64,000 nt of DNA, from positions 20,614 through 84,613 of the forward strand of contig JAKLGL010000001.1 in the NCBI GenBank assembly GCA_022710645.1, in the 5' to 3' direction. Source of the DNA: Patescibacteria group bacterium. Lineage in GTDB: Bacteria; Patescibacteriota; Patescibacteriia; Magasanikbacterales; GWA2-37-8. The notes under the pieces are model-generated. The model worked only from the letters and a program-made list of their open reading frames with translations. It was not told where the DNA came from and searched no databases. The translations under genes were made by a program, and so were the position numbers. Below, one piece after another: positions 1 through 53,845 of the stretch; the stretch's first letter is position 1; every line of letters begins with the position of its first letter.

Positions 1-185
1 CAAGCGTCGGATTTTTGAACACAACTCCTCATCTCTGGGCGCGAAATACACTCGCGCGCGTCGTCCGGTGAAACTCGTTTGGTCAAAAAAATTCAAAACC
101 AGATCTTTGGCTTGCAAAACGGAATGGAAAATAAAACAGATGAAAAGGGGAGAGAAAATGAAATTAATTAAAACGATAAAATAAA

Positions 186-1843: not shown

Positions 1844-3307
1844 ATGTTTGAACAATCATTAAAAAATATAGACGATATTCTTCACCAAGATTCTGGTTGT
1901 GCTACTGAACTTGATTATATTGAACAAACCTCATGGATTTTATTTTTGAAATATTTGGATGATTTGGAAAAAGATAGAGAAACCTCGGCAAAATTGGCAG
2001 GTAAAAAATATGAATATATTATTGACCCTCAATATCGTTGGGAAAAATGGGCGATGCCAAAAAATAAAGATGGCAAAATTGATCACAACACTGCTTTGTC
2101 AGGGGATGATTTGAAAGATTTTGTTAATGGTAAATTATTTCCTTATCTTAAAAAATTTAGAGCAGATGCATCAAGTCCGGATACGATTGAATATAAAATT
2201 GGGGAAATTTTTAGTGAATTAAAAAATAGAATAGAGAGCGGTCACAGACTTCGTGAAATTTTGGAAATAGTGGACGCGCTACATTTTCGTACTGATGCGG
2301 AAAAACACGAACTTTCTCATCTTTATGAAAGCAAAATTGCCAAAATGGGCAATGCTGGACGTAATGGTGGGGAATATTACACTCCAAGACCGCTTATTCG
2401 CACGATTGTAAAAATTGTCGCGCCGAAAATTGGAGAGAAAATTTACGACGGAGCATGTGGCAGCGCCGGCTTTTTGGTGGAAGCTTTTGATTATCTCAAA
2501 TCTGAAAATAAAGATCGTTCTACAAAAAATGATGAAATTTTGCAAAAGAAAACTTTTTACGGCAAAGAAATAAAATCCCTGGCTTATATCATCGGCACAA
2601 TGAATATGATCTTGCATGGCATTGAAGCGCCAAACATCACTCATACCAATACCTTGGCGCAAAATATCAATGATATTCAAGAAAAAGACAGGTTTGATGT
2701 TATCCTTGCCAATCCGCCATTTGGCGCAGGTATTGGCCGAGAAATTCAACAAAACTTTCCCATCAAAACAGGTGAGACTGCTTTTCTTTTTCTTCAACAC
2801 TTTATCAAAATTCTCAAAGCCGGTGGGCGAGCGGGTATTGTTATCAAAAATACTTTTCTTTCCAATACCGACAATGCTTCGGTTAGTTTGCGTAAACTAC
2901 TTTTAGAAAATTGTAATTTGCATACGATTTTAGATTTACCAGGTGGCGCTTTTCAAGGCGCTGGTGTAAAAACTATAGTTTTATTTTTTGAAAAAGGAAA
3001 ACCAACGAAAAATGTTTGGTATTACCAACTCAGCCTTGATCGAAATCTTGGCAAAGGTAATCCACTTAACGAAAATGACTTAGCGGAATTTGTAAAATTG
3101 CAAAAAACAAAAGCAGACAGTGAAAACTCTTGGAGTTTAGATGTGTCTAAAATTGATCAAAATACTTTTGATTTATCAGTTAAAAATCCGAATAAAAAAG
3201 AGGAAAATGTTTTGAGAGAACCGAAGGAGATTTTGGAGGAGATGGAAGAAATAGACGAGGAAAACAAAATAATATTTAAAAAAATCAAAAATTTAGTACA
3301 TGACTAA
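1844..3307 (+). CDS. hsdM: type I restriction-modification system, DNA methyltransferase subunit M
   Basis: HsdM-like N-terminal domain. The N6-adenine methyltransferase motif NPPFG is present, as is an AdoMet-binding DGACGSAGFL motif. Confidence 0.9.
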   Translation: MFEQSLKNIDDILHQDSGCATELDYIEQTSWILFLKYLDDLEKDRETSAKLAGKKYEYIIDPQYRWEKWAMPKNKDGKIDHNTALSGDDLKDFVNGKLFPYLKKFRADASSPDTIEYKIGEIFSELKNRIESGHRLREILEIVDALHFRTDAEKHELSHLYESKIAKMGNAGRNGGEYYTPRPLIRTIVKIVAPKIGEKIYDGACGSAGFLVEAFDYLKSENKDRSTKNDEILQKKTFYGKEIKSLAYIIGTMNMILHGIEAPNITHTNTLAQNINDIQEKDRFDVILANPPFGAGIGREIQQNFPIKTGETAFLFLQHFIKILKAGGRAGIVIKNTFLSNTDNASVSLRKLLLENCNLHTILDLPGGAFQGAGVKTIVLFFEKGKPTKNVWYYQLSLDRNLGKGNPLNENDLAEFVKLQKTKADSENSWSLDVSKIDQNTFDLSVKNPNKKEENVLREPKEILEEMEEIDEENKIIFKKIKNLVHD

Positions 3308-4802
3308 TGCTGATATTAAAATTTATTTTTCTGATTTTTTTGAAGTAGATCATAATAAATTAGAAAGTTATGGCGCTCTTGATATCTCGTTATTGTCAGA
3401 TAATCCAGCTTTTATTGACCCATTTTTAATATTTTATAGTAAAAATAAAGATTATCAACAATTACACCAATCTATTGTCAATTATTTAATCTTTTTAAAA
3501 AAACAAAGTGACGAAGGTAATTTTTCTAATTTATTTTATACATTTCCAGAAGTAAATGAAGTTTGGCTTGGTTTTTCAAAAAGTGGTAATAAAGGACTCG
3601 GTTTAGGACCATATTTTGCTAATGAATTAAATGAAAATCTAATCAATATTTTTAAGGGTAATAAAAATAAAATTACAAAAAGTACACACATTGAAAAACT
3701 TTGTATTATTGGAGAGCGAATTGGAGCGGATAAAATAAGTGATTTTACACTAAATTTGATAAAACATTATTTAGTAAAGTATACTGAAAAATTTGCCATT
3801 GAAAATTTAGACAATAAATACATTTCAAAATTTAGAATATCAAAATTATTTTTTGATTTCGAAAAAAGTAATTGGGTTGATGGTGAAGCTGTCCTTCCAA
3901 TAAATCCGCATGATAAGTCGAACTATGTTTTATTAACACCAAAAGATATTCTAGTGAAAGAGGAAGGGTGGATTTCAGTTAATGATTTTTTAAATAATGA
4001 CGGTTTAATTATAAGTAATATTTCAAATGATGATTTGCGTTATAAAATAAACCAATACTTTCTTTCTTTGATTCCTGATAAGCGTAATAGAAATGGTAAA
4101 CCTGAAAAAGACTTATCGAAGAAAAATACGAGAAATGCAATGAAAGAAACGGCAAAGAAATATCCCGAATTAATCGATTATTTTATTAAATGTAAAGAAG
4201 AAAACGGGCAGGGTGCGGTTGAAGCTAGTTTAGTTGATAATGACTTTTTGAAACAAGTGTTCTATCTTGGTATTAAAGCTATTACTAAAAATTTAAAAAT
4301 TGAAGGTTTTTATAAAACAAATATAAAAGACAATTCATTTTTAGAAACAATAGATAAAATTAAAAAATTTAAGTATGTAATGGAAAAAAGAGATGGGTAT
4401 ACTGTATTTTGGGATGATAAAAAATTAAGAAAATTTAAAGAGCCAGATGTAGACAAAATGATTGATTTAGTTTTCGCTTCTTCTGATTTTTCCATAGATA
4501 AACAAGTTAATAACGGAAGAGGCTCGTCGGATATTAAGGTTTCAAAAGGATCCGCTGATTGTACTATTATAGAAACAAAACTTGCAAAAAACCCTCAATT
4601 AGAAAATAATTTACAAAAACAGTTAAATATTTATAAAGAAGCAAATAATACAACAAATGGTGTTTATGTAATTTTATATTTTAATGAAGATGAATTTAAA
4701 AAGGTGCAAAAAATATTCAAAAAATTAGGAATAGATGATTGTGTTGACAAATGGATATTTTTAATTGATTGTAGAAAGAAAATATCCGCCTCAAAGGCTT
4801 AA
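3300..4802 (+). CDS. uncharacterised 500-aa protein embedded between hsdM and hsdS, with a C-terminal PD-(D/E)xK-like motif (putative nuclease-fold defence protein)
   Basis: It overlaps the hsdM stop by 8 bp, which suggests translational coupling. The C-terminus has '...EPDVDKMIDLVF...(about 30 aa)...CTIIETKLA', a D...ExK pattern. There is no Walker A. Confidence 0.55.
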   Translation: MTNADIKIYFSDFFEVDHNKLESYGALDISLLSDNPAFIDPFLIFYSKNKDYQQLHQSIVNYLIFLKKQSDEGNFSNLFYTFPEVNEVWLGFSKSGNKGLGLGPYFANELNENLINIFKGNKNKITKSTHIEKLCIIGERIGADKISDFTLNLIKHYLVKYTEKFAIENLDNKYISKFRISKLFFDFEKSNWVDGEAVLPINPHDKSNYVLLTPKDILVKEEGWISVNDFLNNDGLIISNISNDDLRYKINQYFLSLIPDKRNRNGKPEKDLSKKNTRNAMKETAKKYPELIDYFIKCKEENGQGAVEASLVDNDFLKQVFYLGIKAITKNLKIEGFYKTNIKDNSFLETIDKIKKFKYVMEKRDGYTVFWDDKKLRKFKEPDVDKMIDLVFASSDFSIDKQVNNGRGSSDIKVSKGSADCTIIETKLAKNPQLENNLQKQLNIYKEANNTTNGVYVILYFNEDEFKKVQKIFKKLGIDDCVDKWIFLIDCRKKISASKA

Positions 4803-4809
4803 TATTTTT

Positions 4810-5922
4810 ATGAAAAATATTATTACTGATAAAAATAATTGGCAAACAAAAAAACTTGGTGAACTTTGCGATATTACAACTGGCAATTCAAATACAGTCG
4901 ATGCTGTCAGTGATGGTCAATATGCTTTTTTTGATCGATCGAAAATAATTAAAAGGAGTCATAATTTTTTGTTTGATTCGGAAGCGTTGATTATTCCAGG
5001 AGAAGGTGCTGAATTTTTCCCTAGATATTATTCAGGAAAATTTAATTTACACCAAAGAGCTTATGCTTTGTTAAATTTTAATAAAAATACAAATGTTAAA
5101 TTTGTAGAATATTTTTTAATTTTTGAACACAAATATTTTGAAAGGGTTGCAGTTGGAGCTACTGCAAAGTCTTTAAGAAGAAGACATTTTGAAGATTTAG
5201 AAATTCCGCTTCCACCCCTCCCCGAACAACATCGCATCGTAAAAATTTTAGATGAAGTTTTTGAAAATATTACGGAAGCGAAAGAAAACGCTGAAAAAAA
5301 TCTTCAAAATTCAAAAGATCTTTTTGAATCGTATTTACAGAATGTATTTGCGAAAAAGGGGAATGGTTGGGAGGAAAAGACTTTAGGCGAGGTGTGTAGA
5401 TATGATAAAACACCATATAAAAAAAGTAATTTACCCTATGTTGGACTTGAAGATATAGAATCAAATTCAGGTAAATTTTTAGGTTCTTTGGATTCAAAAA
5501 AAGTAAAAAGTAATACTTTTCATTTTACACCAGAACATGTTTTATATGGCCGTTTAAGACCTTATTTAAATAAAGTGTTACTTCCAGATTTTGAAGGTCA
5601 TTGTTCAACAGAGATTTTTCCTATAAAGCCCAGCAAAGATTTATATAGAGGGTTTTTATTTTTTTGGCTTATTTCTAAAAAAATAGTTAAAAAAATAAAT
5701 GCCACTTGGACTGGAGCTCGAATGCCTAGGGCAAACATGAATGAAGTATTAGATTTTATAATCCCAATACCATCAATATCCGAACAAAAATCCATCGTTG
5801 CCAAACTTGACGCGCTTTCGGAACAAACTAAAAAACTGGAAGAAATTTATAAACAAAAATTAGCGGATTTGGAGGAATTAAAAAAGTCGGTGTTGAAAAA
5901 GGCTTTTAGCGGGGAATTATGA
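4810..5922 (+). CDS. hsdS: type I restriction-modification system, specificity subunit S
   Basis: Two target-recognition-domain halves separated by the conserved central 'LPPLPEQHRIVKILDEVF' helix, with a C-terminal 'LEELKKSVLKKAFSGEL'. The start was chosen at MKNIITD; the ORF track's 4765 start overlaps the preceding gene. Confidence 0.85.
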   Translation: MKNIITDKNNWQTKKLGELCDITTGNSNTVDAVSDGQYAFFDRSKIIKRSHNFLFDSEALIIPGEGAEFFPRYYSGKFNLHQRAYALLNFNKNTNVKFVEYFLIFEHKYFERVAVGATAKSLRRRHFEDLEIPLPPLPEQHRIVKILDEVFENITEAKENAEKNLQNSKDLFESYLQNVFAKKGNGWEEKTLGEVCRYDKTPYKKSNLPYVGLEDIESNSGKFLGSLDSKKVKSNTFHFTPEHVLYGRLRPYLNKVLLPDFEGHCSTEIFPIKPSKDLYRGFLFFWLISKKIVKKINATWTGARMPRANMNEVLDFIIPIPSISEQKSIVAKLDALSEQTKKLEEIYKQKLADLEELKKSVLKKAFSGEL

Positions 5923-6473
5923 AAGCCAGTGAATATCAAAATCAAATCGCAGAACTTTTAAAACAAATTTTTCCGGCTGAATTGGTAAAAAAGGAATGGG
6001 ATTCGTCTGTGACTTTTAATGACTTGTCTCATAATAAAATGGTTTATGCTCCACGTATAGATGTTGCAATTGGCCCGTTTAATAATCGTTTTAATTTAGA
6101 TGTTGGAGAAATGCCGAGCGATTTGATGAAAAAACATCCTTTTACTAGAATGATGTTTGAAAGGCATTATAATGATATAGATGATTTTGATAAGGTATGG
6201 AATAGTTTTTCTCGTTGTTATTTAGCGATCGAAGTGGAGTTTAGTGGTTCAGCAAAACATATTTTTGGTAGCATAATTAATGCAGTTACAAATGGATCTT
6301 TAGCTTTTATTATTACAAATAAAGAAAATTACAGTAAAGTAGATCGAATTATTAAGTATATTTGGCGACAAGAAAATCAAGAGGTAATAGAATTAAATAC
6401 TTTGAAAAATTTATTGGTATTTGAGGAAGGGGAATTTTTGGAAGTATTGAGGGAATATTTAAAAAAAGTATAA
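5919..6473 (+). CDS. hypothetical protein translationally coupled to hsdS (ATGA overlap), with a possible restriction-endonuclease-like fold
   Basis: 184-aa ORF whose start overlaps the hsdS stop by 4 bp. It has 'YAPRIDVAIGP' and 'LAIEVEFSGSAKH' acidic motifs. The fold assignment is speculative. Confidence 0.5.
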   Translation: MKASEYQNQIAELLKQIFPAELVKKEWDSSVTFNDLSHNKMVYAPRIDVAIGPFNNRFNLDVGEMPSDLMKKHPFTRMMFERHYNDIDDFDKVWNSFSRCYLAIEVEFSGSAKHIFGSIINAVTNGSLAFIITNKENYSKVDRIIKYIWRQENQEVIELNTLKNLLVFEEGEFLEVLREYLKKV

Positions 6474-6557
6474 AATAGGTATAACTAGACTTATTTAAGA
6501 AATTTTATACAAGAGAATTGTAAACAATTTATCTATAATTAGCCAAAAAAAGCAGTA

Positions 6558-6617
6558 TTGACATTACTTATATAATGTAATATACTAGTAATATAACATA
6601 CTAGTATAATCTAATAT
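6558..6617 (+). promoter_or_regulatory. Promoter region (TTGACA-17-TATACT, with a second TATAAT at 6605-6610) carrying two copies of the 8-bp palindrome TACTAGTA
   Basis: TTGACA at 6558-6563. The palindromes are in 'tatactagtaatataacatactagtataat'. The ATG at 6618 has no RBS and sits about 7 nt after the TATAAT, so the mRNA may be leaderless. Confidence 0.45.
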
Positions 6618-8051
6618 ATGAATCAAGAATTAATACAATATTTACAAAAACAAATAAGAACAGTTGAAGATAGGTTATATAAATATACTCACAATACCCA
6701 AGGAGGTAAATTACCTCAACGTTTTTTGTTTGTTAAAATTCAAAAATATCTCAATGATTTTTTAGGTAAAATTTCAGAAAACAGATTAATTATTATTCCT
6801 GGATTACGAGGTGTAGGTAAAACTACTTTGATGGCTCAAATTTGTAGTGATTTAATTGTAAATAAAAAAAATGTAAAAACATTATTCCTGTCATTAGATG
6901 AAGTAAAAAATCTTTTTAATGTTGGGATATCTGAAGTTATGCAAGCATATGAAGAAATTTTAGGTGAAGATTTGGAAAGTTTATCAGAAAATGTTGTTAT
7001 TTTTTTCGATGAAGTGCAAAGTGATCCAACCTGGGCAAAAGCATTGAAAATACTTCATGATAAAACATCCAAAATATTCTTTTGTTGTACAGGATCTTCA
7101 GCAGTAGTATTGCAATCAACCCCAGATATAGCTAGAGGTAGGGCTATATTTGAAAGAATGACCCCGATGTGTTTTATGGAATTTGAAATGGTTAAAGACA
7201 AAGTTTTTCCTACAAAACAATTAAAAAAAGATATATGGGATGCTGTTTATTTTTCCAAAGATGCTGTAGAGGTTTATGATAAATTATCAAAACTACAAAG
7301 TTTGGTAAATAATTATTGGAGCAAGGTGGATAGAAGAGATATGGAGAAATTTTTAGCATATGGATCTTTGCCATTTACTTTACAACTTCCAAACGAAACT
7401 ATTATTAATGATTCTATTTCTTTGTTATTGGATGGAATTATTAAAAAAGATTTACCGATGCTGAATGGTTTTGATGTTAAAACGTTATCACAAGTCAAAA
7501 GATTACTTTTTATTCTTGCTGAAAATGACACGACCAGTATCAATAAATTAGAGGAAATATTAGGTATTGATAGACTAACTATAGCGAGTTTATTGGATGC
7601 TTTAGAAAAAGCAGAATTGATTATAAAAATTTCGGCTTATGGTTCCAATATGTCGGTGGCAAAAAAACCAGCAAAATATCTTTTTATGTCTTCAGCTGTG
7701 CGTATGTCATTTTTTTCAATATCTGGAAATGAAAATACTTTTTCTACAAGAAAAGGAAAGCTCTTGGAAGATTCTGTAGGTACACATTTATATAGAGAAT
7801 TTATACTTAAAAATGATGGCGCTTTACGATATGATAGTTCGCAGAATGGCGCAGATTTTATTTTGCAAATTGCTAATAAAAAACAGATAATAATTGAAGT
7901 TGGTTTGGGTAAAAAAGACAGAAAACAAATTTTAAATAGCATGGAAAGAATTGATTCAGATTATGGCATAGTTTTTTCAAGTAATCCTTTAGTTATTGAT
8001 CAAGATAAAAAAATAGTCAATGTACCTTTGGATTATTATTTTTTAATGTAA
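6618..8051 (+). CDS. AAA+ ATPase of the AAA_14/DUF4143 (COG1373-like) type, embedded in the type I R-M locus
   Basis: Walker A 'GLRGVGKTTL' and Walker B 'VIFFDEVQ'. The C-terminal region 'NGADFILQ...IIIEVGLGKK' resembles the DUF4143 nuclease-like module. Confidence 0.7.
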   Translation: MNQELIQYLQKQIRTVEDRLYKYTHNTQGGKLPQRFLFVKIQKYLNDFLGKISENRLIIIPGLRGVGKTTLMAQICSDLIVNKKNVKTLFLSLDEVKNLFNVGISEVMQAYEEILGEDLESLSENVVIFFDEVQSDPTWAKALKILHDKTSKIFFCCTGSSAVVLQSTPDIARGRAIFERMTPMCFMEFEMVKDKVFPTKQLKKDIWDAVYFSKDAVEVYDKLSKLQSLVNNYWSKVDRRDMEKFLAYGSLPFTLQLPNETIINDSISLLLDGIIKKDLPMLNGFDVKTLSQVKRLLFILAENDTTSINKLEEILGIDRLTIASLLDALEKAELIIKISAYGSNMSVAKKPAKYLFMSSAVRMSFFSISGNENTFSTRKGKLLEDSVGTHLYREFILKNDGALRYDSSQNGADFILQIANKKQIIIEVGLGKKDRKQILNSMERIDSDYGIVFSSNPLVIDQDKKIVNVPLDYYFLM

Positions 8052-8055
8052 TCGT

Positions 8056-10395
8056 ATGAATGAATCAGAAACACGAGCTGAACTCATTGATCCCAAACTG
8101 AAAGCTAGTGGTTGGGGAGAAATAGAGGGCTCAAAAATTTTACGTGAATTTCGAATTACTGATGGACGTATTCAAACAGGTGGCACACGCACAAAGCCGG
8201 AAATAGCCGACTATATTTTGGTTTATAAAAATCAAAAGCTTGCGGTGATTGAAGCAAAAAAAGAAAGTTTGTCGGCTAGCGAGGGTGTAGCTCAAGCTAA
8301 AACTTATGCGGAAAAATTACAGATTGATTTTACTTATTCCACCAATGGCAAAGCAATTTACGAAATTTCAATGAAAACAGGTAAAGAAGGATTAGTGCGA
8401 GATTTTCCGACCCCCGACGAATTATGGAATAGAGTAAATGCAAAATCAAATGAATGGAAAGAAAAATTTGCAACTGTGCCAAACGAGGGAGATTATGGTA
8501 GTCGTTATTATCAAGAGATTGCGATAAACAATGTTTTGAATGCTGTGGCTGAAGGTAAAAATAGAATTCTTTTGACTATGGCAACTGGTACGGGTAAAAC
8601 CGCGGTAGCTTTTCAAATTGCTTGGAAACTTTTTCAAACGCGTTGGAATTTACAAAGAAATGGCGAACGCCGACCGAGAATTTTGTTTTTAGCTGATAGA
8701 AATATTTTGGCCGACCAAGCTTACAATGCTTTTTCTGCTTTTAAAGAAGACGCGCTTGTTCGAATTAATCCACTTGATATTCGTAAAAAGGGCAAAGTGC
8801 CAACTGGTGGAAGTATCTTTTTTACAATTTTTCAAACTTTCATGAGTGGTCCGAATAATACTTCATATTATGGAGATTATCCAGCGGACTTTTTTGATTT
8901 TATTATTATTGATGAGTGCCATCGTGGTGGAGCAAATGACGAAAGTAATTGGCGAGGAATTATGGAATATTTTGCTCCAGCAGTTCAACTTGGTTTAACC
9001 GCTACCCCACAAAGACGAGACAACGTTGATACCTATAGATATTTTGGGGAACCAGTTTATATTTATTCCCTCAAAGAAGGCGTAAACGATGGATTTTTAA
9101 CCCCGTTTAAAGTAAAAAGAATCAAAACTACCTTAGATGACTATGTTTATACGGTAGAAGATCAGATTGTGGAAGGGGAAGTTGAAGAAGGAAAAATTTA
9201 TGAAGAAGAAGATTTTAATAGAATTATAGAAATTCAAGAAAGAGAAGCAAAACGTGTAAAAATCATGTTTAGTGAAATAAATCAAAATGAAAAAACCATT
9301 GTGTTTTGTGCTACTCAAAGTCATGCTGCGGCTGTTCGCGATTTGATCAACCAATTGAAAGAAAATAAAGATCCAAATTATTGCGCTCGTGTAACAGCCA
9401 ATGATGGCGCGCGAGGAGATCAATTTTTACGTGATTTTCAAGATAATGAAAAAACTATTCCAACAATTTTGACCACTTCGCAAAAACTCTCAACTGGTGT
9501 GGATGCTCGCAATGTTCGCAATATTGTGTTGATGCGACCGGTAAATTCCATGATTGAATTTAAACAAATTATTGGACGCGGAACTCGTCTTTTTGATGGA
9601 AAAGAATTTTTTACTATTTTGGATTTTGTAGATGCTTATAAAAATTTTTCTGATCCAGCTTGGGACGGAGATCCTGTAGAAGTGATTGAAGAAAAACCTA
9701 CTAAAAAGAAGGTTGATAAAATAAAAGAGCCCAAAGCAAAATACGAACCGATTAGCGAAGAAGGAGAAGGCGAAGAACCAAAAAAGAAATTGGTTATTAA
9801 ATTAAGAAATGGAAAAGAACATGAAATTCAACACATGGTCTCAACTTCTTTTTGGAGTGCAGATGGCAAACCAATCACTTTGCAAGAATTATTAAATAGT
9901 ATGTATGAAAAATTGCCAGAATTTTTCAAAAATGAAGACGATTTACGTAGAATTTGGTCTAACCCTATTACTCGTAAAGCATTATTAGAAAAAATAGCTG
10001 ATGCAGGATATGGAAGAGAAGAATTGGAAACATTGCAAAAAATGATTGATGCAGAAAATAGCGATTTATTTGATGTTTTGTCTTTCTTTTTATATTCAGT
10101 TAAACCGATCACTAGAGAACAAAGAGTGGAAAAATCAAAGAAAACCATTTTTGATAAATTAGACAATGAACAAAAAGAATTTTTAGAATTTGTTTTGCAA
10201 AAATATATTGATAATGGCGTGGAAGAGTTGGAAGAAGAAAAATTACCTTTGTTGTTGAATTTAAAATATCATGCGATTGCCGATGCTATTAATCAGCTTG
10301 GTGATGTGGATAAAATTCGTTCGGTATTTTTTAGTTTCCAAAAGGAACTATATACTAAAGAAAAAATTAGTAATTTGTTTAGATGTTTTATTTAA
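8056..10395 (+). CDS. hsdR: type I restriction enzyme, R subunit (EcoEI-like short form)
   Basis: N-terminal 'ETRAELIDPKLKASGWG' HsdR_N motif. SF2 helicase motifs 'MATGTGKT' and the DECH box 'IIDECHRGG'. The C-terminal domain is EcoEI-R-like. Confidence 0.9.
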   Translation: MNESETRAELIDPKLKASGWGEIEGSKILREFRITDGRIQTGGTRTKPEIADYILVYKNQKLAVIEAKKESLSASEGVAQAKTYAEKLQIDFTYSTNGKAIYEISMKTGKEGLVRDFPTPDELWNRVNAKSNEWKEKFATVPNEGDYGSRYYQEIAINNVLNAVAEGKNRILLTMATGTGKTAVAFQIAWKLFQTRWNLQRNGERRPRILFLADRNILADQAYNAFSAFKEDALVRINPLDIRKKGKVPTGGSIFFTIFQTFMSGPNNTSYYGDYPADFFDFIIIDECHRGGANDESNWRGIMEYFAPAVQLGLTATPQRRDNVDTYRYFGEPVYIYSLKEGVNDGFLTPFKVKRIKTTLDDYVYTVEDQIVEGEVEEGKIYEEEDFNRIIEIQEREAKRVKIMFSEINQNEKTIVFCATQSHAAAVRDLINQLKENKDPNYCARVTANDGARGDQFLRDFQDNEKTIPTILTTSQKLSTGVDARNVRNIVLMRPVNSMIEFKQIIGRGTRLFDGKEFFTILDFVDAYKNFSDPAWDGDPVEVIEEKPTKKKVDKIKEPKAKYEPISEEGEGEEPKKKLVIKLRNGKEHEIQHMVSTSFWSADGKPITLQELLNSMYEKLPEFFKNEDDLRRIWSNPITRKALLEKIADAGYGREELETLQKMIDAENSDLFDVLSFFLYSVKPITREQRVEKSKKTIFDKLDNEQKEFLEFVLQKYIDNGVEELEEEKLPLLLNLKYHAIADAINQLGDVDKIRSVFFSFQKELYTKEKISNLFRCFI

Positions 10396-15554: not shown

Positions 15555-15645
15555 ATTAGCCAATTTCAAAATTACAAGATTTAAAGATTAAGCCGCCTTA
15601 TTGGCGGTTTTTTTATTTTTTATTTTAAAAATGGTATAATAATTC

Positions 15646-15700
15646 TGTCATTCTGAGTGAAACGAAGAATCCCTTCAATAAAACTTCAGAATAACGAAAA
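15646..15700. repeat. Dispersed imperfect-palindrome repeat, copy A (partly degenerate right arm)
   Basis: 'tgtcattctgagtgaaacgaagaatccc...cttcagaataacga' matches the left arm of the repeats at 17433, 20121 and 53766. Confidence 0.5.
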
Positions 15701-15742
15701 ATTTGTAATCTTTAAATCTTTTAATCTTTAAATAAATTTTGT

Positions 15743-16240
15743 ATGTCAAAATTTGTTAAATATTTTATAGCCATTGCTATTCCTTTATTAGCCAGTGGAA
15801 TAGGTTCTTTATTTACCACCCCGAGCATTCCAGGTTGGTATACAACGTTGGTTAAACCGAGTTTCAATCCGCCAAGTTGGGTATTCGGACCGGTTTGGAC
15901 GATACTTTTCATCATGATGGGTGTGGCGTTTGCTCTTATTTGGATGAATAAACAAGGAAATTGGTTTACCAGATTATTCAAAAAGGAACATTTTAGACAA
16001 TGGGCTTTTACCGCTTATTTTGTTCAATTGACGTTAAATGTTTTTTGGTCGATTTTTTTCTTCGGCCTTCATAATCCGCTTTTGGCTTTTATAGATATAG
16101 TATTTTTATGGTTTGCCATTGCTACCAATATTTATTTCTTTTATAAAATCAACAAAACAGCGGGTTATTTACTTATTCCTTATTTACTTTGGGTAAGTTT
16201 TGCTAGCGTACTTAACTTAACAATCGTACTAATTAACTAA
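15743..16240 (+). CDS. tspO: TspO/MBR family tryptophan-rich sensory protein
   Basis: Five TM helices with Trp-rich conserved segments 'PSWVFGPVWTILFIMMG' and 'LLIPYLLWVSFA'. Confidence 0.8.
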   Translation: MSKFVKYFIAIAIPLLASGIGSLFTTPSIPGWYTTLVKPSFNPPSWVFGPVWTILFIMMGVAFALIWMNKQGNWFTRLFKKEHFRQWAFTAYFVQLTLNVFWSIFFFGLHNPLLAFIDIVFLWFAIATNIYFFYKINKTAGYLLIPYLLWVSFASVLNLTIVLIN

Positions 16241-16309
16241 ATAATGATTACAAAAATTGCAAAAATTACAGAGATTGAAAATTCAATGTAAATTGTAAAT
16301 TAAAAATTT

Positions 16310-16783
16310 ATGAAAATATTGATTGTATATTTTAGTCGAACAGGGATGACGAAAAAAGTTGCGGAGGAGTTGAAAAATAAACTTGGCGCCGATATCGAGG
16401 AGATAACAGACCCGACGGACAGGCGTGGTGTGCTCGGATATTTCAAATGTGGAAAAGAAGCAATGCAAAAAATATCTGCACCGATTAACCCGATAAAATC
16501 GGATTTTAACGTCTATGATTTGGTGATCGTCGGTACTCCGGTTTGGGGTTGGAATATTTGTTCTCCGATCAGAGGTTTGATGGTTAAATATGGACAAGTT
16601 ATGAAGAAAATAGCTGTTTTTTGCACTCAGGGAGGCTCTGGAGCGGAGATTGCCGTAAAAACGATAGAAGAGCTGTCCGGCAAGAAAACCATCGCCAGTG
16701 TGGCGATAAATAACAAGGAAATGCAGAGTGCGGGGTTTGACAAAATATTGAACGATTTCGTGGAAAAAGTTACAATGAAGTAA
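16310..16783 (+). CDS. flavodoxin-family protein
   Basis: N-terminal 'MKILIVYFSRTGMTKKVAEEL' FMN-binding loop, in about 157 aa. Confidence 0.6.
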   Translation: MKILIVYFSRTGMTKKVAEELKNKLGADIEEITDPTDRRGVLGYFKCGKEAMQKISAPINPIKSDFNVYDLVIVGTPVWGWNICSPIRGLMVKYGQVMKKIAVFCTQGGSGAEIAVKTIEELSGKKTIASVAINNKEMQSAGFDKILNDFVEKVTMK

Positions 16784-16900
16784 GGGTGATGATTGAAAAA
16801 TTACAAGATTACAAGATTGCAAGATTCCTTTTGCAACTTTGTGTTTCGTTGTTTAATCTTTCAATCTTTAAATTTTTTAATTATCTAATTTTAAAAAAGT

Positions 16901-17425
16901 ATGGGTCCAAAAACAAAGAAAAACTTGGAAGAAGCTTTTTGCGGAGAAAGTAAAGCAAGAAATAAATATACTTATTATTCTTCCGTTGCTCGCAAAGCAG
17001 GTTATATCCAAATTGCAAATATTTTTGAAGAAACTGCTAATAACGAAAAAGAACATGCCAAACTCTGGGCTAAAGCTCTGGGAATGGTAAAAGATTTACC
17101 AGATGATCTCAAAGACGCTATTGAGGGTGAACTTTATGAAACCAATGAAATGTATCCGCGCATGGAAAAAGAAGCAATAGAAGAAGGAGAGACGGAAATC
17201 GCCAAAATGTTCAAAGAAGTCGGTGAAGTAGAAGAAAAACATGCTATTCGCTATCAAAAATTGTTAGAAAATTTAGAAAAAGGCGAAGTATTTAAAAAAG
17301 AAGATTCAAAACGTTGGAAATGTAACAATTGCGGATATATCCATGAAGGCGATGAAGCTCCGGATAAATGCCCGGCTTGTTCCCATCCGCAAGGATATTT
17401 TGAAGTATTTGTAGAGACCTACTAA
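16901..17425 (+). CDS. rbr: rubrerythrin
   Basis: Ferritin-like diiron ExxH motifs (EKEHAKLW, EEKHAIRY) and a C-terminal rubredoxin-like CNNCG...CPACS. Confidence 0.9.
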   Translation: MGPKTKKNLEEAFCGESKARNKYTYYSSVARKAGYIQIANIFEETANNEKEHAKLWAKALGMVKDLPDDLKDAIEGELYETNEMYPRMEKEAIEEGETEIAKMFKEVGEVEEKHAIRYQKLLENLEKGEVFKKEDSKRWKCNNCGYIHEGDEAPDKCPACSHPQGYFEVFVETY

Positions 17426-17432
17426 ATTTAAC

Positions 17433-17510
17433 TGTCATCCTGAGTGTAACGAAGGATCTGTAAGAAAAGATTTTGCCTGTTGCAGATTCTTCACTTCGTT
17501 CAGAATGACA
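17433..17510. repeat. Dispersed imperfect-palindrome repeat, copy B (between rbr and the dfx start)
   Basis: Left arm tgtcatcctgagtgtaacgaaggatctg and right arm cagattcttcacttcgttcagaatgaca are near reverse complements. Confidence 0.6.
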
Positions 17511-17518
17511 CCAATACT

Positions 17519-17893
17519 ATGGCTAGAATAAACGAAATTTATAAGTGTGCGACTTGCGGCAATATTGTCGAAGTCACACACGGAGGTGCCGGACAATTGG
17601 TTTGCTGCGGCAAGCCGATGCTTTGGATGGAGGAAAATACCATAGACGCGAGTTTGGAAAAACACGTGCCGGTGATTGAAATTTCGGAAGGAAAGATAAA
17701 AATCAAAGTCGGCACTGTGGAACATCCTATGACTGAGGAACATTATATTGAATGGATAGAATATGTCACAGCGGAAAAAGTAGATAGAAAATATCTCAAA
17801 CCCGGAGACAAGCCCGAAGCGGAATTCGGTTTGACTGATGATGGTTTTGCCAGAGCTTATTGCAATTTACATGGACTGTGGAAATCGAAATAA
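17519..17893 (+). CDS. dfx: desulfoferrodoxin / superoxide reductase (2Fe-SOR)
   Basis: N-terminal desulforedoxin 'YKCATCGNIVEV...LVCCGKPM' and a SOR domain 'EKHVPVIE...HPMTEEHYIEWIE'. Start chosen at MARINE; the ORF track's TTG-start extension runs through the repeat. Confidence 0.85.
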   Translation: MARINEIYKCATCGNIVEVTHGGAGQLVCCGKPMLWMEENTIDASLEKHVPVIEISEGKIKIKVGTVEHPMTEEHYIEWIEYVTAEKVDRKYLKPGDKPEAEFGLTDDGFARAYCNLHGLWKSK

Positions 17894-17937
17894 ATTGCAG
17901 AAATTACAGAGATAGCAAAGATTGCAGAAATTAAAAA

Positions 17938-17992
17938 ACCGCTGATGAAGCGGTTTTTTAATAAAAAAATCCGTTCACATTGCTGTGAACGG
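17938..17992. terminator. Two adjacent hairpins (ccgctgatgaagcgg+T7 and ccgttcacattgctgtgaacgg) forming a bidirectional terminator between dfx and the convergent minus-strand operon
   Basis: Inverted repeats with T-runs, read from the sequence. Confidence 0.55.
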
Positions 17993-18005
17993 AAGGAAAA
18001 GAACT

Positions 18006-18173
18006 TTATTCTTCGTTATCTTCGGATAAAGCGGTGATAACGGTCGCGCCGATTACTATCATAATAATAGCGACCGGCAATAGAATAGGATATTTAATAG
18101 GTTTAGGAAGTTTATCAAGCCAGTTGAAGAATTTTTCCAGGAGATATTCCCGGGAATTCATGGTCTCGGTCAT
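18006..18173 (-). CDS. unannotated small membrane peptide (55 aa)
   Basis: Below the 60-aa ORF-track cutoff. It has an ATG with a GGAG RBS ('ttttaaggag', 6 nt upstream) and a hydrophobic core 'PILLPVAIIMIVIGATVITAL'. It lies downstream of the 110-aa gene in the same orientation. Confidence 0.35.
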   Translation of the reverse strand: MTETMNSREYLLEKFFNWLDKLPKPIKYPILLPVAIIMIVIGATVITALSEDNEE

Positions 18174-18184
18174 AATACCCCTCC

Positions 18185-18514
18185 TTAAAAGTAACTGATG
18201 TTTTCCTCTTCAAAAAGACGGATGCTATTGAAAGCGTCAATGAACCAGGAGAGATGCGAGAAGAGAGGATTTTTTTTGAAATCTTCTTCTGTCTTGGTAA
18301 GCGCGATTTCCAGATCGGAAACCGTACTGACCAGTTTCTTGGCCAGGTAATGGTTGTCGGCACCTTGTGAAAACAGTCGGCTCATCAGAGCCGTTCTGCG
18401 TTTGACACAGGTGATTCGATAGCTGATGATAGCCGGAAGTTTTGTTTCTTCCGTTTTTTCCAAAAAAGAAACGAATTCTTTCATGGTTTTTGCGCTTTCT
18501 TCCTTCCAGTTCAT
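18185..18514 (-). CDS. hypothetical protein (110 aa)
   Basis: The internal Met start 'MNWKEESAK' is preceded by an AAGAGGAAGG RBS. The minus-strand promoter TTGACA-17-TATATT lies at plus 18573-18601. Confidence 0.45.
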   Translation of the reverse strand: MNWKEESAKTMKEFVSFLEKTEETKLPAIISYRITCVKRRTALMSRLFSQGADNHYLAKKLVSTVSDLEIALTKTEEDFKKNPLFSHLSWFIDAFNSIRLFEEENISYF

Positions 18515-18572
18515 GGCCTTCCTCTTTAAAAAGTGGATAAACACACTTTGTTGTCAAAAGAACGGATTAATA

Positions 18573-18601
18573 AATATACCAAAATTATCGGTTTTTGTCA
18601 A
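18573..18601 (-). promoter_or_regulatory. sigma70-like promoter TTGACA-17-TATATT (minus strand)
   Basis: Reverse complement of plus 18573-18601. Confidence 0.5.
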
Positions 18602-18608
18602 TATAAAA

Positions 18609-18640
18609 CTGTCCGCTTCAGACGGACAGTTTTTTAATAC
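18609..18640 (-). terminator. intrinsic terminator downstream of asnS
   Basis: Hairpin ctgtccg-cttcaga-cggacag flanked by T/A runs on both strands. Confidence 0.55.
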
Positions 18641-18654
18641 TTTATTATTGGGTG

Positions 18655-20052
18655 TTAAAAGATAATGTTATTGGGTGTTCGCGGATAGGTGATTACATCA
18701 CGCACGTTTTTCATCCCTGTGAAATACATTATAGCGCGTTCAAAGCCCAGTCCGAATCCGGTATGAGGGAAAGTGCCGAATTTGCGAGAATCCAAATACC
18801 AAGAATAATCATCCGGATTGAGGCCGTGATCTTTTAATTTTTGCGTTAAAATATCCAAACGTTCTTCACGTTGCGATCCGCCGATGATTTCACCGATTCC
18901 CGGCACGAGCAAGTCAGTGGCAGCCACGGTTTTGCCGTCATCGTTGAGGCGCATATAAAACGCTTTTATTTCTTTCGGATAGTTGTAGACAAATACCGGT
19001 TTTTTATAAACGGTTTCTGCAAGATATCTTTCATGTTCGCTTTGCAAACCATCTTCCCATTTTACCGGGTATTCAAATTTTACTTTGGCTTTTTTGAGAA
19101 TTTCAATCGCTTCCGTATAAGTAATTCTGGCAAAATCATCTTTTAGAATATTTTCCAATTTTTCTATCAATCCCGGTTCGATGAATTCGTTGAAAAATTT
19201 CATTTCATCCGGCGCTTTTTCTAATAAATCTTTGATAAGATATTTGACAAATTCTTCGGCCAAATCCATATCATCAAACAGATCGGCAAAAGCTATCTCC
19301 GGTTCAATCATCCAAAATTCATTGGCGTGACGAGCGGTATTGCTATTTTCCGCGCGAAATGTCGGCCCGAAAGTATAGACATTACGATAAGCAAAACACA
19401 TTGATTCCACGGCCAATTGTCCGGAAACGGTAAGATAAGCTTCTTTTCCGAGTAATTCTTCGGAATAATTGATTTTCCCTTCAGCGGTTTTGGGAAGTTT
19501 GTTCAGGTCAAGTGTAGTGACGCGAAACATTTCACCTGCGCCTTCAGCGTCGTTACTCGTGATTATCGGAGTGTGAATATAAGTAAAACCTTTGTTTTCA
19601 AAAAAACGATGGATAGCTTGCGCTACTATGGAACGCGCGCGGAAAGTAGCCATAAAAGTATTGGTGCGCGGACGTAGGTGGGGGACAGTGCGTAAAAATT
19701 CAAAAGAATGACGTTTGGTTTGGATGGGATTACTCAAATCAGAGACGCCGACGATTTCAATACTCTTGGCTTGAACTTCAAAAGCTTGTTTTTCACCTTC
19801 GGACTTCACCAATTTACCCTCAACAATGAGAGATGAACCGGTATAAATATTTTCCAATTCGGAAAAATTTGGCAATTTATCGGTTAAAACGATTTGAATA
19901 TTTTTGTAACATGAACCGTCGTTAAATTCGATAAAGGCAAATGTTTTGGAAGAACGGGAAGTGCGGACCCAACCGGAAAGGCGCACTTCTTTGTCCAAGA
20001 ATTTTTTTGGGTTTTCCCAAATTTGTTTTACTAAGACGTTATTTTTTGACAT
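18655..20052 (-). CDS. asnS: asparaginyl-tRNA synthetase
   Basis: Class IIb aaRS with an N-terminal OB fold. '[21 protein letters not shown]' is diagnostic of AsnRS rather than AspRS. Length 465 aa. Confidence 0.9.
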
Positions 20053-20120
20053 AAGCGGATGAAGTTTAGTTGAAAATTACCTGTTAATTATACAACAATT
20101 CATTATAAGATTGCAAGAAA

Positions 20121-20218
20121 TGTCATCCTGAACGCAGTGAAGGATCTGTAAGTAAAATAATTACTTTTTGCAGACCTACCTGCCGGTAGGCAGGTTCTTC
20201 GCTTCGCTCAGAATGACA
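20121..20218. repeat. Dispersed imperfect-palindrome repeat, copy C, with the embedded 20-bp palindromic module cctacctgccggtaggcagg (20175-20194)
   Basis: The same arms as copies B and D. The inner module is shared with 53723-53742. Confidence 0.6.
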
Positions 20219-20265
20219 ATAAAATTATTTCACGGGGTAAAAAAAAGACCCCGCAGGGTCTTGGG

Positions 20266-20679
20266 TTAATTGAAAGAAAAAATACGATTTTCTTTCGGAG
20301 GAGTGCTTACCGGAATTACCTGGTTTTTTTTCAGGTAACCGTAAATAAGAACTCCTTCCTTATTTGACCAACACTTCAAAGAAGCACAGCCGATGATTTT
20401 AGTCATCTCGATTTCTTTTTGGTGAAAGGTTTTTTTCTCGCAGATTACGCAAATGTTTTTTGGTAGTTTTTCGATATCCGTTTTTCTGTACAACGCGTAC
20501 AAAGTAACAGGTTCGCCTTCGACAAGCGGATTGTGACACCAAGGACACACAAAATGACTTGTCGTTACTACTTCTTTTTTTCTTCTCTGGAAAAATTTTT
20601 CCAAGAATTTTTCGAAAAAATTTCTCATGATATGCTCCGTATTGAAAGTTTGATAATAAAGAACGACTGCAGTATACAT
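20266..20679 (-). CDS. hypothetical Cys-rich (zinc-finger-like) protein
   Basis: CPWC...CVIC...C..C cysteine pairs. The terminator hairpin gaccccgcagggtc+T8 lies just downstream at 20240-20262. Start may be the internal M at 20626. Confidence 0.4.
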   Translation of the reverse strand: MYTAVVLYYQTFNTEHIMRNFFEKFLEKFFQRRKKEVVTTSHFVCPWCHNPLVEGEPVTLYALYRKTDIEKLPKNICVICEKKTFHQKEIEMTKIIGCASLKCWSNKEGVLIYGYLKKNQVIPVSTPPKENRIFSFN

Positions 20680-53691: not shown

Positions 53692-53722
53692 TAAAATTGA
53701 AAAGATTACAAAAATTACAGAG

Positions 53723-53742
53723 CCTACCTGCCGGTAGGCAGG
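53723..53742. repeat. 20-bp palindromic module cctacctgccggtaggcagg (second copy)
   Basis: Identical to 20175-20194. It lies 25 bp upstream of repeat copy D. Confidence 0.55.
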
Positions 53743-53765: not shown

Positions 53766-53845
53766 TATCATCCTGAGTCGTAGACGAAGGATCTGCAAAA
53801 AGCAATAATGCTACTTACAGATTCTTCACTTTGTTCAGAATGACA
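53766..53845. repeat. Dispersed imperfect-palindrome repeat, copy D (between def and fmt)
   Basis: Arms atcatcctgagtcgtagacgaaggatctg and cagattcttcactttgttcagaatgaca, the same family as 17433 and 20121. Confidence 0.6.

Follow-up and report, generated by a model that had tools for sequence, protein, structure and literature searches.

The DNA analyzed here, hereafter called the window, is a 64-kb stretch (G+C = 35.9%) of a metagenome-assembled genome (MAG) of Candidatus Magasanikbacteria, Patescibacteria, which is also known from assemblies of anaerobic-digester metagenomes. The dispersed palindromic elements of the window are head-to-head dimers of a 25-nt unit, which we call the arm, with one arm on each strand. 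Each arm is a covarying hairpin in its own right, and it is precisely where the arms covary that the two arms of a dimer fail to match; both points go beyond the first-pass annotation of this DNA. The arms are probably strand-specific DNA hairpin repeats of the class that takes in the CGTC/TGTC-tagged repetitive extragenic palindromes (REPs) and the Ssn-related motifs (SRMs). They would be bound by an Ssn-type nuclease, and the dimers would be gene-less derivatives.

The palindromic elements and their hairpin unit

Of the palindromic elements in the window, three are complete and one is half-decayed; in addition, a 20-mer is present in two exact copies (Table 1). The first-pass annotation had placed four copies at 15646-15700, 17433-17510, 20121-20218, and 53766-53845. 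All of them were confirmed by re-reading the sequence, as was their location in intergenic regions: helicase-tspO, rubrerythrin-desulfoferrodoxin, open reading frame (ORF)-synthetase, and def-fmt, respectively. Two elements do lie directly before start codons, as had been claimed. Element 17433-17510 ends 9-12 nt upstream of the dfx ATG, and element 53766-53845 ends 12 nt upstream of the fmt ATG.

The pattern GTCATYCTGAR-N(5-30)-GAAGRATC has five matches in the window, compared with none in 100 dinucleotide-preserving shuffles. A sixth arm, 20193-20217 on the minus strand, was recovered by a looser mismatch-tolerant scan, and a repeat finder recovered the family independently (D4, D7, D12, and I1). 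The 20-mer is found exactly twice (20175 and 53723), in agreement with the earlier count; nothing further appears at ≤3 mismatches, and shuffles gave 0. Neither the elements nor the 20-mer pair would be expected from chance alone. When 10 kb on each side are included (84 kb), the number rises to seven elements with 12 arms, the three additional elements being in the right flank and none in the left. Identical arms are present in the source genome, e.g., those at 20122, L328 6795, and L328 7067.

A stem of approximately 25 bp between the two arms had been taken as the basic structure. Instead, the repeat unit is the single arm, with the consensus T-GTC-ATYCT-GA-[GC-GNA-GC]-GA-AGRAT-C. In the fold, the T-GTC head is followed by a 5-bp stem (ATYCT/AGRAT), tandem G·A/A·G mismatches, and a 2-bp inner stem that is capped by a GNA triloop; a C stands at the 3' end. 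Tandem mismatches of the 5'-GA/3'-AG type adopt sheared pairing, and the DNA mini-hairpin C-GNA-G is highly stable. The arm is strand-specific, since its reverse complement would carry T·C/C·T.

The left-arm sequence described in the first-pass annotation as common to the copies holds in general, but arm 53767-53793 is 27 nt long and has ATC instead of GTC. Similarly, the copy at 15646 had been called degenerate, which applies to one side only: the left arm is intact, and the right arm is reduced to a 12-nt remnant. In every full dimer of the window, positions 6 and 22 are C and G in the left arm, but T and A in the right arm when the latter is read along its own strand. These positions form Watson-Crick pairs within an arm and C·A or G·T mismatches between arms.

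Viral and genome contig collections were scanned with the pattern GTCATYCTGA-N7-GAAGRATC, which yielded at least 120 viral-contig loci and at least 120 genome-contig loci. By our own estimate, this pattern would match approximately 140 times by chance in the whole 596-Gb genome collection. Judged by their internal structure, almost all of the genome-collection matches are real. Among the matches listed, the pair 6/22 is T-A or C-G in 153 of 155 arms from viral contigs and in 153 of 157 arms from genome contigs. The N7 segment, left unconstrained by the pattern, reads GCGNAGC, ACGNAGT, GTGAAAC, and similar in the listed genome arms. Its first and last positions are G-C in 119 and A-T in 28 of these 157 arms, its second and sixth positions are C-G in 140 and T-A in 4, and the loop is G-N-A in 131.

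A sample selected by protein (see below) is less biased than the motif-selected one, because its search anchors exclude the paired positions. Among its 38 distinct arms, pair 6-22 takes each of the four Watson-Crick forms (17/16/3/1), and pairs 8-20 (29/5) and 11-17 (30/7) take two forms each. With shifted partners as a control, about half of the cases at most were paired. The internal loop of the protein-selected arms was GA/GA in 73/73 when the dinucleotides were not imposed. Pairs 6-22, 8-20, 11-17, and 12-16 covary, and the arm is a hairpin-forming palindrome backed by compensatory changes.

Hammerhead, K-turn, and C/D-box readings of CUGA...GA were rejected on inspection: the spacing is wrong, no NGA precedes the inner stem, and there is no 3-nt bulge. 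The outer end of the arm, ATGACA (53840-53845 and 15646-15651), was scored as an outward-reading -35-like hexamer, which is probably incidental.

Table 1. Arms, spacer, and 20-mer copies of the window (positions are numbered from the first nucleotide of the window).
Feature	Position	Strand	Context and remarks
Single intact hairpin unit, T-GTCATTCTGAGTGAAACGAAGAATC	15646-15671 (25-nt arm 15647-15671)	+	Between the terminator of a pif1-like helicase gene and tspO
Degenerate 12-nt right-arm remnant, cttcagaataac (consensus gttcagaatgac)	15684-15695	-	
Left arm, C..G type	17434-17458	+	Dimer between rubrerythrin and desulfoferrodoxin
Dimer spacer, 26 nt	17459-17484		Ends TGTAA...TTGCA prolong the inverted repeat; families D7 and D12
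Right arm, T..A type	17485-17509	-	Rubrerythrin-desulfoferrodoxin dimer
Left arm	20122-20146	+	Composite dimer
20-mer, CCTACCTGCCGGTAGGCAGG	20175-20194		Inside the base of the right arm of the composite dimer, between GCAGA and TTCTTC
Right arm, GTCATTCTGAGCGAAGCGAAGAACC	20193-20217	-	Composite dimer; final two bases come from the 20-mer
Solo 20-mer, CCTACCTGCCGGTAGGCAGG	53723-53742		Within a ATTACAGAG/ATTKMAAA short-repeat tract downstream of def; family D2
Left arm, 27 nt	53767-53793	+	def-fmt dimer; ATC head, longer inner stem GTC-GTA-GAC
Right arm, T..A type	53820-53844	-	def-fmt dimer

Distribution across bacteria and viral contigs

Among the matches listed, the arm unit is spread over more than 12 bacterial phyla and is also present in viral contigs. 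Its hosts in this set include Patescibacteria (Paceibacterota, Saccharibacteria, and Gracilibacteria), Bacteroidota, Chloroflexota, Acidobacteriota, Nitrospirota, and Bacillota. Further hosts are Pseudomonadota (several classes), Planctomycetota, Verrucomicrobiota, Gemmatimonadota, Omnitrophota, Bdellovibrionota, Cyanobacteriota, Chlorobiota, and others. Approximately 40% of the listed genome arms have an inverted partner within 110 nt, with spacers of 2-90 nt. All five dimers of the source genome (three in the window and two in the right flank) are heterodimers of a C..G arm and a T..A arm. A general preference for heterodimers was rejected, since the listed genome loci gave 6 heterodimers and 15 homodimers.

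In a set of related phage contigs from IMG/VR (L032, L037, L038, L083, L100, L107, and L114), single arms are located upstream of homologous ORFs. Some of these arms lie 10-25 nt upstream of the ribosome-binding site, and no Ssn gene is present in those contigs. Literature searches with the arm sequence or with translations of the spurious peptides it encodes returned only primer noise.

Association with a GIY-YIG nuclease gene

ORFs within 200 nt of arms were clustered at 240 motif-selected loci (the 120 viral and 120 genome loci listed). The only ORF family that recurs across genomes beside the arms, in the genome loci listed, encodes a single-domain GIY-YIG protein (PF01541) of approximately 95 amino acids. 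The gene is tightly bracketed by arms in a Saccharibacteria MAG (L130), a Gracilibacteria MAG (L157), and Hymenobacter glaciei (L243), and an arm-bracketed gene in degraded form is found in a Cyclobacteriaceae MAG (L140). No transposase family, including Y1 and DDE, recurs beside the arms at the 240 loci listed.

The association is also seen from the side of the gene. When metagenomes were scanned with aligned arm-associated proteins, 80 loci with 52-73% identity were obtained. An arm is present within 200 nt of the homologue in 63/80 (79%). It lies upstream in 52 of the 78 loci with room and downstream in 47 of the 74 with room, and 41 homologues (51%) have arms on both sides. The density of arms is 5.0 per kb within 200 nt of the gene and 0.15 per kb beyond 400 nt, and the enrichment near homologues is 33-fold. 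In the commonest layout, the gene lies between inverted arms: a plus-strand arm precedes the start codon by 15-60 nt, and a minus-strand arm follows the stop codon at a distance of 5-40 nt. The GTC of the arms next to these ssn genes is preceded by T in 100/101 cases. To define the unit of mobility, metagenomic loci that share an ssn unit in different contexts were sought; one such pair was found, and it lacks arms.

Neisseria SsnA is a 94-aa single-domain GIY-YIG protein of the cd10448 type (Chenal et al., Nat Commun 2025; PMC11893778). It binds the NTS repeat CGTCATTCCCGCGMAVGCGGGAATCYRG as single-stranded DNA (ssDNA) only and on one strand only, and it cuts a few nucleotides upstream (PMC11893778). 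The arm-associated protein shares 46% identity (E 4e-16, 95% coverage) with a 94-aa ORF of N. gonorrhoeae. This gonococcal ORF is surrounded by canonical NTS repeats, CGTCATTCCCGCG..GCGGGAATC, and its Y6, Y17, and E64 coincide with residues that were mutated in the SsnA study (PMC11893778). Because of the identity, the NTS-flanked gonococcal ORF, and the matching residues, the arm-associated protein is assigned to the SsnA family.

Homologues on plasmids carry different motifs. The Planktothrix plasmid homologue WP_083616022.1 (L332) is flanked by TGTCATTCTGAGTGAAACGAAGAATCTC, in which the 25-nt unit is identical to window arm 15647. In the same plasmid collection, a Rhizobium homologue is accompanied by the motif CGTCATCCCAGGGCTTGACCCTGGGATCCA, and a Spirosoma homologue by GTCATCCCGAGGAACGAGGGATC, in which the G·A tandem is also present. 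Judged by their sequences, motif and enzyme vary together among these homologues.

The Gracilibacteria Ssn ORF (L157 6260-6602) reads through its inverted arm, so that the protein ends in ...RDSSLRSE and the TGA within the arm sequence GAGTGAC serves as the stop codon. Translation of arms in this manner probably gives rise to spurious or extended small ORFs in annotations. The arms would account for a very common source of spurious small ORFs and of assembly-breaking palindromes in MAGs.

Turnover of the elements among sister species

The first-pass annotation suggested a comparison of insertion sites with sister genomes. Three sister species whose fmt is 79-84% identical to that of the window share the gene order priA-nudix-def-fmt-wzy. 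The def-fmt junction of the window measures 166 nt and contains short A/T repeats, the 20-mer, and the dimer. In the sister species, def and fmt overlap (L335) or are separated by 27 nt (L336) or 3 nt (L337). Conversely, a dimer of L337 separates two glycosyltransferase genes whose spacing in the window is 3 nt. Since the sister def-fmt sites are empty and the L337 dimer occupies a site that is empty in the window, the elements are lineage-specific insertions that come and go over the time in which species diverge, and the alternative of orthologously conserved leaders fails. Assemblies of the same species (L001-L003, L329, and L330) are identical at the elements and show no strain polymorphism.

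A model for the arms and its alternatives

In the proposed mechanism, DNA that becomes single-stranded during replication, DNA uptake, conjugation, or repair would allow each arm to fold. The small single-domain GIY-YIG Ssn nuclease would bind the folded arm and cut a few nucleotides 5' of GTC. In a head-to-head dimer, the two predicted cut sites would flank the element, and elsewhere the nuclease gene itself is located between inverted arms. For these two reasons, the dimers look like gene-less derivatives of an arm-ssn-arm unit. They may spread, or be maintained, via the Ssn nuclease, which is a concrete candidate for how arm repeats spread. We infer in this way the binding and cleavage of the G·A variant and its mode of spread, and a host function such as the restriction of incoming ssDNA is conceivable. 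A bolder proposal can be put forward only tentatively. The tandem-G·A hairpin might define a distinct pan-bacterial Ssn specificity class, and arm-ssn-arm units and dimers might together form a mobile system resembling insertion sequences (ISs) and miniature inverted-repeat transposable elements (MITEs). Such a system would be driven by the 95-aa GIY-YIG ssDNA endonuclease in place of a transposase, active in candidate-phyla-radiation bacteria, and present in phage genomes.

Several observations weigh against the nuclease model. Nearest-neighbor DNA folding of a single arm returned the expected fold at -0.8 to -1.9 kcal/mol, which does not improve on shuffled sequence. Since these single-arm thermodynamics are marginal, the structural case rests on covariation and on the stability of G·A pairs and GNA loops. 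The window and its two 10-kb flanks (84 kb of the source genome) contain no cd10448-type Ssn gene. The sole GIY-YIG gene in this region belongs to the UPF0213 type and has no flanking arms. The Ssn gene is also absent from the 120 viral arm loci listed, and a search of viral contigs for Ssn gave one partial match. The GTC head is found in 6/7 window arms, with ATC in arm 53767. Furthermore, Neisseria SsnA is inactive when the stem sequence is altered, even though the hairpin is kept (PMC11893778), so recognition is not simply transferable to the G·A variant.

The lack of an Ssn gene in 84 kb is what would be seen if the window copies were functionless relics, seeded ancestrally or via horizontal transfer by an Ssn-type element that has since been lost. 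Decay is also visible: the 15646 copy is half-deleted, the head of arm 53767 is mutated, and arm 20193 is interrupted by the 20-mer. However, most arms keep all invariant positions, identical arms in the source genome suggest recent copying, and sister species carry dimers at different sites. In addition, 84 kb represents about a quarter or less of the contig. We consider that the copies are unlikely to be mere relics, although this is the strongest of the alternatives.

A role in RNA, which the first-pass annotation had raised, has a somewhat smaller chance of being correct. The long hairpins formed between arms would then act as attenuators, processing sites, or mRNA stabilizers for dfx and fmt. 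The dimers do fold stably, at -25 to -48 kcal/mol with z-scores of -4.8 to -7.8. Two of them lie within co-directional gene pairs just upstream of start codons, and the phage arms that precede a ribosome-binding site by 10-25 nt would fit as well. However, no dimer has a T-tract or a terminator-like call, and the genuine terminators are at 15590-15610 and 20262-20245 (minus strand). Dimer 20121 is located between a small ORF (20266-20679, minus strand) and the gene of a class II aminoacyl-tRNA synthetase of the D/K/N type (18655-20052, minus strand). More precisely, it lies between the terminator of that ORF and a promoter-like site of the synthetase gene (20116-20087, minus strand), and is probably outside any transcript. 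The def-fmt element is absent from the sister species. At the loci listed, a crude ORF-based test gave no bias in how single arms are oriented to the ORFs beside them, with 21 in the same and 22 in the opposite orientation in viral contigs and 13 and 11 in genome contigs. Moreover, the covariation backs the hairpin within an arm, and the stem between arms is mismatched at the same positions. Rfam gave no match at gathering thresholds. At E values up to 1 there were four sub-threshold matches (E 0.44-0.62; 15-27 bits compared with gathering thresholds of 40-51), which were taken as chance; one of them, AaHKsRNA82 (15583-15672), overlaps arm 15647. For the genes of the window, the elements are ordinary repeat DNA of a known class and not a regulator of dfx or fmt.

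It is improbable that the elements are REPs, or their inverted doublets (REPINs), mobilized by a REP-associated tyrosine transposase (RAYT), an IS200/IS605-like Y1 HUH enzyme. Imperfect hairpin units in inverted doublets are indeed the architecture of REPINs, and no target-site duplication is seen. The 20-mer, too, contains GTAG and inserts without duplication beside CAGA(G). Nevertheless, the tag of the arms is TGTC, with T before GTC in nearly every arm next to an ssn gene, and not GTAG. No Y1 transposase recurs beside the arms at the 240 loci listed, where the recurrent neighbor is the GIY-YIG gene. For CGTC-type REPs, likewise, no associated transposase was found, and no dedicated one is known (PMC3733652).

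Least probable of all is the earlier suggestion of classical MITEs, i.e., deletion derivatives of a DDE-transposase IS with the arms as terminal inverted repeats: the elements are short (78-98 bp), intergenic, bounded by inverted repeats, and polymorphic between species, but the four window copies have no target-site duplications and no transposase-derived ends, many copies are single arms, a near-identical arm with internal covariation in more than 12 phyla (among the matches listed) would be unexpected for the ends of one IS family, and the sole recurrent neighbor gene is the GIY-YIG nuclease gene, with no DDE transposase recurring nearby (240 loci listed).

The 20-mer module

The 20-mer is a separate small palindromic module that is nested in dimers or adjoins them. 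The first-pass annotation put the copy at 20175 inside the loop of its element. In fact, its 20 nt are cleanly inserted into the right arm, after position 23 and before position 24: dimer 20121 reads GCAGA-[20-mer]-TTCTTC, where dimer 17433 reads GCAGATTCTTC, and nothing is duplicated. At the solo copy (53723), the surrounding tract reads ATTACAGAG/.../ATTTCAAAG, and its uninterrupted copies read ATTACAGAGATTGAAAA. The two alternative hairpins claimed for the 20-mer are both possible, as mutually exclusive 6-bp hairpins. The two window copies have in common the changes A4/T13, which are compensatory for the first 6-bp hairpin, and they derive from one source copy on this ground.

Related modules are found beyond the window. 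In the sister species L338, a dimer at an unrelated site carries a perfect 20-nt palindrome, CCTGCCTGCCGGCAGGCAGG, at the same internal position. A third variant, CCTGCCTGTCGGCAGGCAGG, lies just left of the window, 40 nt upstream of a UPF0213 gene. The idea of the 20-mer as the cognate site of this GIY-YIG gene is not supported, as no such hairpin lies beside the gene in three other UPF0213 contexts.

The UPF0213 gene and other features of the window

The UPF0213-type GIY-YIG gene (window 1-184, plus strand; L327 9628-9876) straddles the left edge of the window and starts 64 nt outside it. It encodes 82 amino acids (PDB 1YWL/1ZG2 family, E 2e-16). Its homologues are 70-87% identical across very different classes of Patescibacteria, whereas fmt is only 55-58% identical, a pattern that suggests horizontal spread or an unusual constraint. 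In the sister species L338, a GTC-hairpin-C motif (GTCATCCTTGC...GCAGGGATC; 3241-3290) with a nested inner hairpin directly follows the UPF0213 stop codon, and this sequence hints that UPF0213 genes may also carry SRM-like sites. Just left of the window, at L327 9400-9600, a 52-codon ORF ends a few bases before the variant 20-mer CCTGCCTGTCGGCAGGCAGG. The start of this ORF presumably resembles a four-helix-bundle/23S-rRNA-intervening-sequence protein, and the ORF may be a gene truncated by insertion.

Intergenic tracts of approximately 8-9-nt units (ATTRCARAG; on the other strand AATCTNTNN) are located at 15562-15589, 15700-15735, 16254-16281, 16791-16826, 17892-17937, and 53694-53721. They often lie directly upstream of start codons and are also seen in the sister species, such as in the def-fmt spacer of L336 and upstream of the UPF0213 gene in L339. 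Positions 1844-10395 of the window hold a type I restriction-modification operon (HsdM, HsdS, and HsdR) with inserted DUF8370/DUF8371 and AAA_14/DUF4143 (nSTAND-like) genes, which resembles a defence island.

Comparison with known systems

Bacterial MITEs, such as the Correia elements of Neisseria, are likewise small, intergenic, built of inverted repeats, and polymorphic between strains or species. The arms differ from them in having neither target-site duplications nor IS-derived ends, in also occurring singly, and in having a covarying fold of their own. The REP/REPIN-RAYT systems of E. coli and Pseudomonas share more features with the arms: a hairpin unit that is arranged into inverted doublets, recognition as ssDNA, intergenic location, and a single-copy enzyme gene flanked by its own repeats. 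However, they have a GTAG tag and an HUH Y1 enzyme, in contrast to TGTC and GIY-YIG. REP families are also usually genus-specific, whereas the arm unit is nearly identical across phyla.

Closer still are the CGTC-tagged REPs of Di Nocera, De Gregorio, and Rocco (BMC Genomics 2013), in which the tag is "changed to TGTC in many repeats" (PMC3733652). This superfamily takes in dRS3 of Neisseria and RPE-4/6 of Rickettsia. Its stems open with A-T/T-A, a short 3' tail follows, head-to-head dimers predominate, and heterodimers are common (PMC3733652). The window arms agree in the TGTC tag, the A-T/T-A stem opening, the short 3' tail, and the head-to-head dimers. The description of the elements as REP-like, dispersed, and modular in the first-pass annotation was borne out, as they consist of TGTC-tagged hairpin repeats of the CGTC-REP/SRM class that are joined head to head. 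The CGTC-REPs have Watson-Crick stems of 8-9 bp and loops of 4-5 nt, whereas the arms have two invariant G·A mismatches and a 3-nt loop. Since the 2013 pipeline dropped repeats with more than one stem mismatch (PMC3733652), the G·A class would have been filtered out of that survey.

The Ssn nucleases were described in 2025 as the first endonucleases that are both site-specific and restricted to ssDNA, and have been proposed as tools (PMC11893778). The arms resemble SRMs and NTS repeats in the (C/T)GTC head, the palindrome AT...AT, and the C right after it. They are also intergenic, often paired, and often on both sides of the nuclease gene, and in both cases the motif is strand-specific and the associated protein is a single-domain GIY-YIG protein of approximately 94 amino acids. 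For SsnA, cleavage is governed by the GTC before the palindrome, and binding depends most critically on the C that follows the palindrome (PMC11893778). In the arm motif, this GTC and this C are invariant. All window arms end in ...AGRAT-C, and in the interrupted arm 20193 this C is supplied by the 20-mer. The rates of association are similar: arms lie near 79% of the homologues and on both sides of 51%, compared with 71% and 42% published for motifs near Ssn homologues (PMC11893778). The arms differ in that a GC-rich Watson-Crick helix is replaced by an A/T-rich 5-bp stem, tandem G·A/A·G, a 2-bp stem, and a GNA triloop. They also differ in the hosts of the variant, which include Patescibacteria, Cyanobacteriota, Bacteroidota, Chloroflexota, Acidobacteriota, and viral contigs.

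The published SRM pattern HGTCWYN(0-2)YYVSBRHN(0-5)WNVSBRGN(0-2)RNCYNB matched 0/316 strict arms, and the same expression found six sites in the Neisseria locus and four in the Rhizobium locus. Since this pattern misses the G·A class, the numbers of SRMs now given for whole genomes are too low. Any enzyme-motif pair may represent a new specificity. The motif class at hand escapes the published pattern and yet brackets most of a large Ssn branch, and it would extend the recognition repertoire to a non-Watson-Crick hairpin with sheared G·A pairs and a GNA loop. This class is found in Patescibacteria, Cyanobacteriota, and Bacteroidota, and the bare motif extends to at least 12 phyla and to viral contigs. 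The arms appear to be of a known kind, that of TGTC-tagged REPs and SRMs, in a so far undescribed variant that lies outside the published definitions.

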